From an uncultured virus (IMG/VR IMGVR_UViG_3300021598_001257) (Duplodnaviria; Heunggongvirae; Uroviricota; Caudoviricetes), in the IMG/VR virus record IMGVR_UViG_3300021598_001257: DNA of 64,000 nt. One strand, 5' to 3'. The notes below the pieces were generated by a model. The model had not been told where the DNA came from. It did no database searches and was given only the letters and a program-made list of their open reading frames with translations. The translations under genes and the position numbers were made by a program. Position 1 is the first letter of the stretch; every line of letters starts with the position of its first letter. This document shows, piece after piece, positions 18,158 to 58,011 of the stretch.

Positions 18158-19225
18158 TCAAGAAGAAGTTTTGGAGTCTTTTTTCAGAATTTGATTTTTA
18201 ATCCAAGAATAAGTTTTAGCAATTCCATCTTCAAGTGCCTGAGAATAATCCCATCCCAGTTTTTCACGAATCAAATCATTATTTGAATTACGTCCACGAA
18301 CTCCAAGAGGGGCATCTAAAATATGTTCTTTACCTACCACTTTATCAGCAACTTTGGCAGCAGTATCAACAAGTTGATTGATAGTTACCATTTCTTCAGA
18401 ACCAATATTAACTGGTCCCATAAAATCACTATCCATCAATCTGCGGGTTGCTTCAATGCATTCATCAATATACAAGAAGGAACGAGTTTGTAGGCCATCT
18501 CCCCACACTTCGATGGTTCCACCTTCCTCAGGAAGATAGGCAACTTTACGGCAGATTGCTGCTGGCGCTTTTTCTCTACCTCCTTCCCAAGTTCCCTCTG
18601 GTCCAAAGATATTATGATACCTAGCAACCCGAACAGGGATCCTATAATTACGATTATAAGCGAAAAACAACCGCTCTGAGAACAACTTCTCCCAACCATA
18701 TTCAGAATCTGGATTTGCGGGGTATGCTGAATCTTCACGGCAATCTGGATTATCTGGGTCTAATTGATTGTGTTCTGGATACATACAAGCAGAACTAGAG
18801 TAAAAAATCTTAGTTTTGTTTACTCCCTTAAAGTCATTCAACTGTCTCTGAGACTCAAGGACATTCAAATTAATACTTGCAGAATTATGCATAATGTCAG
18901 CATCATTCTCACCAGAAAAAACAAATCCTGCACCACCCATATCAGCAGCAAACTGATAGATTTCATCAAAAGTATCAATATATTGAGATGCTACAAAGTG
19001 ATAGAAATTGCCGAGATATCCTTTAAACTGAAGCACTCTTTCCACAAAATTAGCGTCTCTCAAATCCCCCTGAACAAACTCATTTGCCTCAGAAATTGAA
19101 AATTCAGGATATTTAAGATCTACACCACGGACCCAATACCCTTCTGCCCGCAGTCTTTTTACCATGTGGCTTCCAATAAAACCACCAGCACCAAGAACAA
19201 GTGCTGTTTTCTTATAGTCACTCAT
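18158..19225 (-). CDS. NAD-dependent epimerase, GDP-mannose 3,5-epimerase-like (wcaG family)
   Basis: GAGGFIGSH, AADMGG, SSSACMYP, YGWEK, GGREKAPAA, GVRGRNS. Confidence 0.9.
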   Translation of the reverse strand: MSDYKKTALVLGAGGFIGSHMVKRLRAEGYWVRGVDLKYPEFSISEANEFVQGDLRDANFVERVLQFKGYLGNFYHFVASQYIDTFDEIYQFAADMGGAGFVFSGENDADIMHNSASINLNVLESQRQLNDFKGVNKTKIFYSSSACMYPEHNQLDPDNPDCREDSAYPANPDSEYGWEKLFSERLFFAYNRNYRIPVRVARYHNIFGPEGTWEGGREKAPAAICRKVAYLPEEGGTIEVWGDGLQTRSFLYIDECIEATRRLMDSDFMGPVNIGSEEMVTINQLVDTAAKVADKVVGKEHILDAPLGVRGRNSNNDLIREKLGWDYSQALEDGIAKTYSWIKNQILKKDSKTSS

Positions 19226-19288: not shown

Positions 19289-19294
19289 CGCAAT

Positions 19295-19436
19295 TCAGGC
19301 TCGCCACCAATTCTTTGACTGGAAATTGGAAACCAGGCGGGAGAGAGTCCCATCCGCACCACTTGCTCTTGAGAGAAGCAAGAAACTCATAGGGGTCATT
19401 TTGACTCCACCACTTAGTTTTGTGAAACTAAGAAAA
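19295..19436 (-). ncRNA. wcaG/manA-type cyanophage structured RNA
   Basis: Repeated TTT-stem-TGGYG modules and a GCGGATGGGA..TCCCGC hairpin, upstream of a wcaG-family epimerase; family assignment recalled, not searched. Confidence 0.7.
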
Positions 19437-22601: not shown

Positions 22602-22931
22602 CTATCTTCCATAGTCATCTTGCAATCTTACTATATCATCTTCATCACACTTACCAACCTGAACTTCAATAAAGGTCAGACCATCACTGTCGGCAGATGC
22701 TCTATGAACGGATTGTTTTTGTATATAATATGAAGTCTTTGAAGAAGTTGAGTATTCAGTTCCATCAATAATTACTTTTCCAGATCCATCAACAATAGTC
22801 CAGTACTCATCTCTATGATTGTGATACTGTAGAGAGAACTGCTGATAAGGATTAACTACGATTCTTTTAACTTTATAATTTTCCTCTTCTAGAAGAATTT
22901 CATAAGTTCCCCAAGGTCTTTTGTATATCAT
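22602..22931 (-). CDS. mannose-6-phosphate isomerase type II C-terminal cupin
   Basis: RPWG, SLQYHNHRDEYW, IEVQVG, EDDIVRLQDDYGR. Confidence 0.9.
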   Translation of the reverse strand: MIYKRPWGTYEILLEEENYKVKRIVVNPYQQFSLQYHNHRDEYWTIVDGSGKVIIDGTEYSTSSKTSYYIQKQSVHRASADSDGLTFIEVQVGKCDEDDIVRLQDDYGR

Positions 22932-22948
22932 ATTTTTTACTTTATATA

Positions 22949-23020
22949 TGGGCGATGACGGATTCGAACCGCCGACCTACTCCGTGTAAAGGAGGCACTC
23001 TACCGCTGAGTTAATCGCCC
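22949..23020 (-). tRNA. tRNA-Val(TAC)
   Basis: CTCC-TTTACAC-GGAG. Confidence 0.95.
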
Positions 23021-23120
23021 TCTAACGGGGGTGATCAAGTCCCCGACCTAAGCAAACTTAGGATTTAGTGAATCGGATATGATAGTCCCGATTCTTATGA
23101 AAGAACCTAAGTCCTTTCAA

Positions 23121-23193
23121 CTGGGGCGGCAGGGATCGAACCTGCGACCTAGATGTTAACAGCATCCCGCTACTACCGCTGAGCTACACCCCA
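23121..23193 (-). tRNA. tRNA-Asn(GTT)
   Basis: GATG-CTGTTAA-CATC. Confidence 0.95.
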
Positions 23194-23198
23194 TTATA

Positions 23199-23268
23199 AG
23201 GAAGTTACTGGACTTACACCAGTTCAAAGGGCATTGTCTGCTTGTCTCGTTTCTTTGACTTAACTTCC
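23199..23268 (-). ncRNA. tRNA-like element with degenerate anticodon arm
   Basis: Acceptor GGAAGTT/AACTTCC, D-like GTC..GAC, T arm ACTGG-TGTAAGT-CCAGT. Confidence 0.65.
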
Positions 23269-23306
23269 TTTGGCGTCTACCTAGTTAATCGCTAGGGACT
23301 ACCAAG

Positions 23307-23378
23307 AGCGGAGTATCGGAATCGAACCGACGACATCTAACTTGGAAGGATAGCGTTCTACCGCTGAACTAACTCCGC
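23307..23378 (-). tRNA. tRNA-Gly(TCC)
   Basis: CTATC-CTTCCAA-GTTAG. Confidence 0.93.
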
Positions 23379-23382
23379 AGGA

Positions 23383-23534
23383 GGAAAACACAAAACGTGG
23401 CGGTGTTTTGTGTTTTCCAAGTTATAGCAACTTCAGAATGGCGGTTCTTTAGTTGCTAGGTTTGGCATCTACAGAATGGCCGTTCCATAGATACCGATTT
23501 GGCAATTATAAAGTGGCGGTTCTATAATTGCCAA
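23383..23534 (-). ncRNA. array of four hairpins with conserved C(C/G)GCCA loops
   Basis: Inverted repeats at 23383-23418, 23425-23458, 23462-23497 and 23499-23534; stems unrelated in sequence, loops conserved. Confidence 0.8.
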
Positions 23535-23592
23535 TTCCCAAAGTAGGATTCGAACCTACAAGTTATAAACTTCTACCTTTTAGATTTTAGGA
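23535..23592 (-). ncRNA. 58-nt mini tRNA-like element
   Basis: Acceptor TCCTAAA/TTTGGGA, canonical T arm GTAGG-TTCGAAT-CCTAC, shrunken D and anticodon arms. Confidence 0.7.
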
Positions 23593-23604
23593 TTTGTTTT
23601 TTAT

Positions 23605-23633
23605 ATAGTAACAAACTTTTGATAGTTTGTCAA
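23605..23633 (-). promoter_or_regulatory. sigma70-like promoter
   Basis: TTGACA-N17-TACTAT. Confidence 0.75.
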
Positions 23634-23634
23634 G

Positions 23635-23716
23635 TGTCGATGAGAGGACTTGAACCTCCACAGATTAATCTACTGGAACCTAAACCCAGCGCGTCTACCA
23701 ATTCCGCCACATCGAC
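23635..23716 (-). tRNA. tRNA-Leu(TAG)
   Basis: CTGGG-TTTAGGT-TCCAG, long variable arm. Confidence 0.93.
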
Positions 23717-23761
23717 TTGATGGAGTAAGTGTGATATATCTCATAAGGATATAACAGTGAC

Positions 23762-23812
23762 TTACCCTCTATCACTTTTATATAGTAACAGACTCTAAAG
23801 AATCAGTCAAGC
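23762..23812. repeat. 51-bp direct repeat, copy 1 (contains TTGACW-N17-TACTAT promoter on minus strand)
   Basis: Two mismatches versus 25143-25193. Confidence 0.9.
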
Positions 23813-24059
23813 ATCTAAAGGAAAGAAGCATTCTGAAGAAACTAAAAGAAAAATGCGAGAAGCAGCACAATCTTATAGAACTCCAGAATATAGGAAAAAA
23901 ATATCAGATAGAATGACTGGAAGAAAAATATCAGATGAAACTAGAGAAAGACAAAAAATTGCTGCTAAAAAAAGATGCGAAATGCAAAAACTTGATAGAA
24001 TGGTAAAGCAATCAAATCAAGTAAATTTTTTAATTTGTTTATGGGAATCTGATTTTTAA
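23799..24059 (+). pseudogene. C-terminal fragment of a homing endonuclease (NUMOD3-like repeats)
   Basis: KGKKHSEETKRKM and TGRKISDETRER; no nuclease domain; frame closed by TAA at 23796. Confidence 0.7.
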
Positions 24060-24641
24060 TCACCACGCCCAACTTACGGCTGAAAATCGACGACCACGAG
24101 TTGCTTCAGTTACGCCGTGTGGGTAGAGAAAAAGGCTGGGAAACATTATGATGTCGCCTTTACCAAGAGGCACAATGTAGTCGTCCCAAAAATATAAATC
24201 TGCTCCTTCATAGTCATCATTCAAATTTAGAATGAATGAAAGCACTGGAATTCCAGCGTCTTGTGTATTCCAGAGACTGTGAATGTGGTCGTGATGTTGT
24301 CTCATAATCTGACCAGGACTATAACGATTGAAACGAATCGCAGAGAACTTGTTCATAATCTGCATCGTTCGTTCACATTCAAAGTGATACTTGGCATTAT
24401 ATGCAGCACCTGCCTGAATCATAAAAGGCGTCAAGAGCGATTGATGTTCCGCAGTAATATTCTGAACATCAAGTTCCATTGTTTCTTCTGAACCAAATGT
24501 TCCCTGCACGGCATTATACCAACTATGAGGTCTCCATTCTTTCTTTTCAATCTCATCTACGAGATAATCACATAGATTTGGCGGAATAATACCACGCTCT
24601 ACGTGAATAAGGTCTTTCAGTTGTGTATTAGGATTGTTCAT
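24060..24641 (-). CDS. 2OG-Fe(II) oxygenase (prolyl-hydroxylase-like)
   Basis: RY..GQIMRQHHD, LNDDYEG, HGVT...RFS. Confidence 0.88.
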   Translation of the reverse strand: MNNPNTQLKDLIHVERGIIPPNLCDYLVDEIEKKEWRPHSWYNAVQGTFGSEETMELDVQNITAEHQSLLTPFMIQAGAAYNAKYHFECERTMQIMNKFSAIRFNRYSPGQIMRQHHDHIHSLWNTQDAGIPVLSFILNLNDDYEGADLYFWDDYIVPLGKGDIIMFPSLFLYPHGVTEATRGRRFSAVSWAW

Positions 24642-57873: not shown

Positions 57874-58011
57874 TTATAAAAAAGAAGAACCGCCCCGTGA
57901 GAGGCGGTTCTTGAGTGCTTGGCGTCGTGCTTTTGCTTGTCGGAGTGCTTGCGGTTTCAGTTTCCGCTTCTGCTCCTTCTTAGAGTGGTGTTGCCAGTTT
58001 GGGACTTGCAT
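57874..58011 (-). CDS. small basic protein (45 aa)
   Basis: Hand translation MQVPNWQHHSKKEQKRKLKPQALRQAKARR... Confidence 0.6.
   Translation of the reverse strand: MQVPNWQHHSKKEQKRKLKPQALRQAKARRQALKNRLSRGGSSFL

Follow-up and report, generated by a model that had tools for sequence, protein, structure and literature searches.

A row of four hairpins in the tRNA region of a T4-like cyanophage: possibly an expanded promoter/leader stem-loop cassette

Between the genes for tRNA-Leu and tRNA-Gly of an uncultured virus (IMG/VR record IMGVR_UViG_3300021598_001257), inside a set of 20 minus-strand tRNA genes, lies an array of four adjacent hairpins with near-identical loops, referred to here as hp1 to hp4. 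The stretch that was analysed, 64,000 nucleotides (nt) of that record and called the window throughout, comes from a T4-like, Kyanoviridae-like cyanophage. The array is best filed as a variant of PeSL-like promoter/stem-loop cassettes, not as a new RNA class, and the explanation that we tentatively favour is that it represents an expanded promoter/leader stem-loop cassette acting in cis in the tRNA precursor. The hairpins, with stems and loops as given by RNA folding, are as follows.

23499-23534, minus strand: hp1, a 14-bp stem with one G–U pair and the loop ACCGCCAC
23464-23495, minus strand: hp2, a 12-13-bp stem with three wobble pairs and the loop ACGGCCAT
23425-23458, minus strand: hp3, 8+4 bp around a 2x2 internal loop, with the loop ACCGCCAT
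23383-23418, minus strand: hp4, a perfect 14-bp stem with the loop ACCGCCAC, ending 4 nt before tRNA-Gly

Read from 23536 down to 23381, the 156 nt of the minus strand adopt a fold of four distinct hairpins with an energy of -63.9 kcal/mol, as against -26.3 +/- 3.7 kcal/mol for shuffles of the same 156 nt (z -10.27, none of 200 as good), and the minimum-free-energy (MFE) structure accounts for 26% of the ensemble (frequency 0.26). For the plus strand the corresponding values are -59.0 kcal/mol (z -5.92) and an MFE frequency of 0.017, and its fold no longer has the four-hairpin layout. In a 12-bp register laid over the four hairpins, 46 of the 48 stem cells are paired – both unpaired cells fall in hp3 – and 9 of the 12 stem pairs show changes on both sides, a number that none of 500 shuffles reaches. 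Selection of the hairpin pairing on the tRNA strand is supported by these two-sided changes together with the strand-asymmetric fold. Four of the paired cells are wobbles (G–U or U–G) on the minus strand that would be A–C on the plus strand, with no case of the reverse, although as evidence this strand bias is weak (one-sided P about 0.06). The original prediction, made from the letters of the DNA, had described four adjacent hairpins on the tRNA strand with near-identical loops 41, 38 and 37 nt apart (37, 38 and 41 nt when read from hp1 to hp4), some of whose mismatches become G–U pairs on the minus strand only; folds and motif positions agree with the first statement, and the count of four wobble cells to none bears out the second.

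GCCA is present in the loops of all four hairpins, and the longer motif ACSGCCA occurs five times in the 64-kb window, four of these sites being the array loops. Elsewhere in the window, a 12-bp hairpin at 57885-57912 (minus strand) holds in its 5' arm the sequence AGAACCGCC, 9 nt that equal the 5' closing bases and loop start of hp1 and hp3; this match is probably due to chance.

The stems fall into two groups. A repeat search resolves hp1 to hp3 into three copies of a 37-nt unit, placed 38 and 37 nt apart and showing 68% (hp3) and 70% (hp1) identity to the middle copy, hp2, which serves as the reference; Tandem Repeats Finder (TRF), though, reports no tandem repeat in the array at its own thresholds. 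Outside the loop, pairwise comparison of the 5' arms of these three gives 7/11, 7/11 and 5/11 shared bases; relative to 11-mers drawn at random from the window, P is 0.014, 0.014 and 0.13. The 5' arm of hp4 agrees with those of hp1 to hp3 at 2/11, 2/11 and 4/11 bases (2/11 to hp1), and despite this unrelated stem its loop is the same 8-nt loop as that of hp1. Judged by these identities, hp1 to hp3 are old, diverged tandem duplicates, kept paired by compensatory and G–U changes, and a constraint on the loop beyond the stems is supported because the unrelated hp4 stem carries the 8-nt loop of hp1. The stems had been called unrelated, which is right for hp4 and not for hp1 to hp3, tandem 37-nt copies that are 68-70% alike. 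Likewise, the suggestion that selection on an RNA structure, rather than recent duplication, explains the array stands as far as the pairing is concerned, but the array does reflect duplication, of an old and diverged kind.

Where the triplicated unit may have come from is indicated by hp1. In a promoter scan, hp1 reads as a palindromic sigma-70-like promoter, TTGGCA-18-TATAAT, with 11 of 12 positions agreeing with the consensus on both strands, while the same scan finds no promoter-like site in hp2, hp3 or hp4. Related arrangements were sought in at least 120 IMG/VR loci anchored on a tRNA-Gly of the window type, which comprise 101 distinct 150-nt upstream contexts: a promoter-like site lies within 150 nt in 62 of these, and of the 62 sites 28 are palindromic, meaning that the -35 arm pairs with sequence at or past the -10 box. 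From 25 distinct hairpins of other cyanophage contigs (alignment A4, with no sequence from the window) a covariance model, R3, was built. The A4 unit is about 33 nt long, TTGACAAT...ATTGTC; its outer stem runs over 7 bp, and its inner part, which forms a covarying stem, is variable and in large part self-complementary (examples are L167:594-626 and L253:328-360); pair 9:28 of the outer stem covaries, being CG in 17 and UA in 7. In the 64-kb window, R3 gives a significant match to hp1 alone (25.5 bits, E 5.7e-4, minus strand), the best of 13 listed, and the next match away from hp1 scores 14.7 bits (E 0.3). The layout of the class is also found in hp1, with the -35 and -10 hexamers in the two arms and a spacing within 16-18 nt. 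By model score and layout, hp1 is a member of this cyanophage class of palindromic promoter hairpins. One subgroup of A4 has CCACC-type loops that resemble the window loop and contain AACCACC, CCACCCACC or CCATCCACC. Unlike the units of the array, hairpins of the class stand elsewhere singly, or as two copies at least 112 nt apart per locus, and never back to back. As a separate observation, A4 hairpins often end 4-6 nt before tRNA-Gly, so that their transcripts would start near its mature 5' end.

Because hp1 is equally promoter-like on both strands, and is matched by R3 at 23.6 bits on the plus strand too, an element acting at the level of DNA has to be weighed: recombination-prone promoter cassettes, or cruciform or single-stranded DNA signals, without any role as RNA. 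The array would then have arisen as a side effect of unequal exchange between such cassettes, and template switching inside the hairpin would have preserved the palindromes. Mobility of such modules is consistent with one IMG/VR contig, L016, in which the same block, from the tRNA-Leu promoter to past tRNA-Gly, lies inside different flanks, as modular shuffling would have it; a role in shuffling of this kind has been put forward for PeSLs (Arbiol et al. 2010; PMC2839356). Template-switch correction, however, yields perfect Watson–Crick palindromes, yet four G–U and no A–C cells are seen (again with P of about 0.06, and weak), the four-hairpin fold is not kept on the plus strand, and the asymmetric conserved loop is left unexplained. 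We consider a purely DNA-level element rather unlikely. Two further features of L016 may be recorded here: its block is otherwise identical to that of the window except for several neighbouring bases in the tRNA-Leu variable arm, where the changes look compensatory, and a 99-nt insertion lies just upstream of its tRNA-Leu.

The fourth hairpin is best approached through marine cyanomyoviruses. In 14 of the 20 loci found by a pattern for the promoter-hairpin loop, a second hairpin and then a tRNA-Gly come after the promoter hairpin, and the displayed 5' part of that tRNA-Gly matches the tRNA-Gly of the window. Aligned as 13 distinct sequences (alignment A3: L184:400-450, L279:55-105 and 11 others), this second, or leader, hairpin has a consensus of 12 pairs, four of them with compensatory changes; an 8-bp covarying stem and an outer stem of GGGC/GCCC type carry a loop of 14-17 nt with conserved ACC repeats. 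No Rfam family matches it. The leader hairpin is also present, unannotated, in Synechococcus phage Bellamy (MF351863.1, 155488-155536; L529:351-399), between tRNA-Arg and a different tRNA-Gly(UCC) allele that is followed by tRNA-Asn and tRNA-Val, an order as in the window. Like the marine leader, hp4 stands directly 5' of tRNA-Gly(UCC) and has a C/A-rich loop (ACCGCCAC; in the marine form ACCACCACCACC), whereas the marine leader stands singly and differs in its 14-17-nt loop and its additional outer stem. Kinship between the two is suggestive, not demonstrated. The core that the two lineages have in common is CCRCC, not NCCA.

That shared core bears on what the loops may do. They had been proposed to display NCCA as a mimic of the tRNA 3' end, or else to form kissing loops: no test supports the mimic, the motif common with the marine hairpins is CCRCC, and kissing is impossible for the three CCGCC loops, the self-complementary GGCC being found only in the loop of hp2. 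A more general form of the idea is a multivalent RNA of about 155 nt that is set free to act as a decoy or sponge: RNase Z or RNase E would cut after the tRNA-like element that adjoins hp1, RNase P would cut at the 5' end of tRNA-Gly, and the four ACSGCCA loops of the product would titrate some factor of the host or of the phage, for example a tRNA-directed nuclease, or a reader of the CCA end or of the NCC (glycine-type) anticodon loop. The array does end within 1-4 nt of that element on one side and of tRNA-Gly on the other, so that tRNA-processing enzymes could set both ends, and terminal hairpins should shield the product from exonucleases. One loop carried four times on different stems, and unchanged on the unrelated stem of hp4, recalls protein-sponge RNAs; all four loops hold GCCA, and the loops of the marine counterpart consist of ACC repeats. 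Set against this are the lack of conservation beyond one lineage in the searches made, the fact that promoter-hairpin duplication explains three of the four units, and the loops themselves: two marine promoter-hairpin loops read CCACCTG, without CCA, and a CCA enclosed in a loop imitates a free 3' end poorly. A released decoy is, in our judgement, unlikely. The specific version in which the excised four-hairpin RNA acts against a host tRNA-directed defence nuclease or another tRNA-handling enzyme, with the marine ACC-repeat hairpin as its simpler ancestral form, we regard as decidedly unlikely.

The loops could in principle also act as antisense sequences to class II tRNAs: at positions 7-13, tRNA-Leu would pair with the CCGCCAY loops and tRNA-Ser(UGA) with the CGGCCAT loop, and unfolded precursors or fragments would thereby be held or chaperoned. 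TGGCGG does occur at positions 8-13 of the adjacent tRNA-Leu (23709-23704, minus strand), TGGCCG occurs once on the entire minus strand, at positions 8-13 of tRNA-Ser(UGA) (21853-21848), and the single C/G difference between the loops parallels the difference between the two tRNAs. Yet a 7-nt complement in the 20 tRNAs is also found for 11% of shuffled and 62% of random 7-mers. In the folded tRNA the D stem hides the bases to be targeted, and in all three marine loci checked the tRNA strand offers no GGTGG partner for the ACC-repeat loops. The pairing to tRNA-Leu and tRNA-Ser is a coincidence near chance level, and an antisense role is very improbable.

Under the favoured explanation, an expanded cassette acting in cis, hp1 would descend from the palindromic early-promoter hairpins, whose 5' arm holds the -35 box and whose 3' arm holds the -10 box, that sit just upstream of tRNA-Gly in many cyanomyoviruses; the expansion would be local to the variable tRNA region of a freshwater T4-like cyanophage. 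The promoter-hairpin unit would have been triplicated in tandem to give hp1 to hp3; hp2 and hp3, now without promoter hexamers, have kept the stem through compensatory and G–U changes, which would mean that the hairpin has been selected apart from the promoter. A separate leader hairpin adjoining tRNA-Gly would make up hp4. The array would be transcribed on the tRNA strand from upstream early promoters, perhaps from hp1 too, and its hairpins may then work in cis, lessening read-through in the precursor and stopping exonucleases as stable barriers, and may keep the tRNA-like element apart from tRNA-Gly for processing of the RNase P/Z type. The shared loop core, ACSGCCA here and CCACC in the marine relatives, probably serves as a contact for some factor, which is a guess on our part.

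Several results weigh against such an account. Neither hp2, hp3 nor hp4 is matched by R3 at E values up to 10. With regard to hp1, TTGGCA and an 18-nt spacer stand against the TTGAC and 17-nt spacer of the 21 sites of the phage itself, and hp1 may be inactive as a promoter. A covariance model of the marine leader (R2, from A3) scores hp4 at 8.0 bits (E 6.5), the fourth of seven weak matches; this is not significant, and the argument for homology therefore comes down to position and loop likeness. No terminator-like site (a GC-rich hairpin plus a U tract) occurs in 22900-24100, as had been noted at the outset for the hairpins themselves, and classical intrinsic termination is therefore unlikely. 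A purely structural role in cis leaves the retention of the loop unexplained, above all that of the identical 8-nt loop on hp4. Outside the window, the array is found only in near-identical DNA (the IMG/VR records G001 and G002, and contigs from freshwater or lake sequencing runs), so that there is no between-lineage covariation to draw on, and the single RNA run has cover on the tRNA parts only, being uninformative on expression of the array.

This narrow distribution emerges from searches of several kinds. A two-loop pattern finds 14 loci in IMG/VR, two of them with the array (G001 and G002) and 12 made up of unrelated repeats without flanking stems; a three-loop pattern finds at least 120, among which the G001 contig was recognised and the match lengths that were checked fit a period of 3, as in coding repeats. 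A pattern joining the loop to tRNA-Gly, and a 24-nt string from the tRNA-like element, each return only the G001 and G002 contigs. In the tRNA-Gly-anchored IMG/VR sample (at least 120 loci, 104 distinct upstream contexts), the array occurs only in the G001 contig. A covariance model of the four window hairpins, R1, reaches at best 15.9 bits (E 0.19) over 79 tRNA-Gly-anchored loci; its next best match in the window outside the array scores 14.6 bits, G001 outside the array yields nothing, and whole records give no match in S-CREM1, none in S-SRM01 and one at E 0.3 in Sf-FS3. A search of relatives by covariance model, as had been recommended, thus returns no significant matches, with the array itself confined to near-identical DNA. 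When 222 nt were compared by blastn with 50,697 phage records, the matches listed all had E values of at least 3 and fell mainly on the T-arm of the tRNA-like element.

Wider pattern scans agree for the matches that they list, from which absence elsewhere does not follow: among at least 116 metagenome loci, no motif site has a flanking stem of 6 bp or more, and among at least 120 loci of prokaryote genomes, 10 of 382 motif sites have flanking stems of at least 5 bp, the one inspected (L486) being a direct duplication in an actinomycete metagenome-assembled genome. Many contigs of two related metagenome sets (loci L293-L372) hold arrays with a 44-nt period and the same 11-nt motif; these lack flanking stems and are unrelated. 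Fourteen sequencing runs hold at least half of the sampled words. Three DNA runs, each from a different study, yield one contig apiece that covers 23350/23351 to 23660-23699, and within 23379-23600 these contigs differ only at 23496, in the linker between hp1 and hp2, and at 23585, with no difference in any hairpin; divergence among these runs is too low to be informative.

Catalogued RNA families offer no match for the array, in line with the view that it belongs to none that has been described. Rfam 15 at gathering thresholds gives 20 tRNA matches and one to wcaG over the whole window, none of them in the array, and in an E-value search of 23150-23850 the sole match inside the array is a trivial one of mir-290 to hp4 (17.2 bits, E 1.6; the gathering score of that family is 51). 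A CRISPR array, which had been discounted from the start and would need identical direct repeats of about 28-37 nt with unique spacers between them, was rejected: the units are diverged (68-70% alike) and abutting, with only the 8-nt loop common to hp4. A literature search, mostly at the level of abstracts, found no account of the array, of the cyanophage class of palindromic promoter hairpins or of the ACC-loop tRNA-Gly leader.

The immediate neighbourhood of the array comprises the following features.

23306-23378, minus strand: tRNA-Gly(UCC), called by ARAGORN and Rfam, the gene downstream of the array
23535-23592, minus strand: a truncated tRNA-like element of 58 nt with acceptor stem, short D region, T arm and collapsed anticodon arm, abutting hp1
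23605-23633, minus strand: a sigma-70-like early promoter, TTGACA-17-TACTAT, 10/12 to consensus, overlapping a short hairpin directly after tRNA-Leu
23634-23716, minus strand: tRNA-Leu(UAG), called by ARAGORN and Rfam, the upstream neighbour of the array

The tRNA-like element folds into a cloverleaf-like form. Its score with the Rfam tRNA model, 23.5 bits (E 0.021), falls short of the gathering score of 29, and it is absent from the ARAGORN calls; base 23585 within it is variable, differing in L016 and in the three DNA runs. The promoter at 23605-23633 would drive both this element and the array, and the promoter scan marks a further promoter-like site at 23810-23782. Across the window, TTGAC-N18-TANNAT occurs 21 times (1.15 expected), 20 of these on the minus strand, and the tRNA strand is therefore densely supplied with early-type promoters. 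The region of the array holds many promoter-like sites and small open reading frames (ORFs), none of 40 amino acids or more overlapping the array itself. All 20 tRNA genes of the window lie on the minus strand. Among named phages, the freshwater Synechococcus phage S-SRM01 comes closest over 20 kb, with about 77% identity across 28% of the query, and the IMG/VR record G001 is 100% identical to the window over 23200-23800.

Several neighbouring modules were noted in passing. One of about 60 nt, at about 23717-23781 (minus strand) between an early promoter and the next tRNA, recurs almost base for base in S-SRM01 (L003, about 1503-1567, before tRNA-Asn) and in contig L209, and has no Rfam match in the E-value search of 23150-23850. 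The 112-nt spacer after tRNA-Gly (23194-23305, minus strand) begins with a hairpin-like module around 23266-23303, which recurs in contig L164 between the 3' end of a tRNA-Leu-like sequence and tRNA-Gly; the remainder of the spacer forms a long-range stem. Further away, a wcaG RNA (19293-19390, minus strand; 104.9 bits) lies upstream of a gene resembling NAD-dependent epimerases and GDP-mannose dehydratases (18158-19225, minus strand), and a gene for a cupin of the mannose-6-phosphate isomerase type (22602-22931, minus strand) follows tRNA-Val without a manA RNA; in S-CREM1, by comparison, a manA RNA is annotated immediately after tRNA-Leu.

If the cassette reading is right, the array would illustrate a route by which phage regulatory cassettes evolve: a promoter hairpin is triplicated, two of the three copies lose the promoter, and the hairpin and its loop are kept, the role of the stem-loop thus being selected separately from transcription initiation. 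The comparison also brings out two uncatalogued covarying elements of cyanophage tRNA regions, the palindromic promoter-hairpin class and the ACC-repeat-loop leader of tRNA-Gly. The leader occurs in the cultured phage Bellamy, which grows on Synechococcus WH8109, and is hence experimentally accessible. Were the shared loop a true binding site, the array, with its four copies, would amount to a naturally occurring multivalent form of that site.

Among known systems, the nearest are the PeSL cassettes of T4-type phages, for which Arbiol et al. (2010; PMC2839356) describe strong sigma-70-like promoters combined with stem-loops that serve as terminators or attenuators and are placed either over the -10 box or between it and the -35 box. 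PeSLs are described there and by Comeau et al. (2014; PMC4122927) as recurring cassettes in a hyperplastic region of small genes, with a small ORF downstream that has a Shine–Dalgarno site and a start codon, and with stems that are often polyG/polyC; cyanophages are not mentioned in the text of either paper. By sequence alone, hp1 resembles them in joining a sigma-70-like promoter to a stem-loop over the -35 and -10 boxes in a hyperplastic region. Unlike PeSLs, the hairpins described here are AT-rich, precede tRNA-Gly rather than an ORF, stand four in a row with one common loop, and in three cases lack a promoter; in place of a terminator and an ORF start, the array is followed by tRNA-Gly, with no terminator-like site found.

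Two other comparisons concern the form of the RNA. CsrB and RsmZ carry GGA in their loops and bind CsrA and RsmA, and like them the array would display one short loop motif on several hairpins with varying stems. Unlike CsrB and RsmZ, it is situated within a tRNA precursor and has no GGA loops; a sponge of that type was rejected by motif, the loops reading ACSGCCAY. The tRNA-microRNA (tRNA-miRNA) units of murid herpesvirus 68 belong to another host biology – bacteria are not known to have a miRNA pathway – and processing is only putative here. With those units, and with the stable RNAs C and D of the T4 tRNA cluster, the array nonetheless shares its general plan, in which a tRNA-like element is followed by stable hairpins within a viral tRNA cluster.

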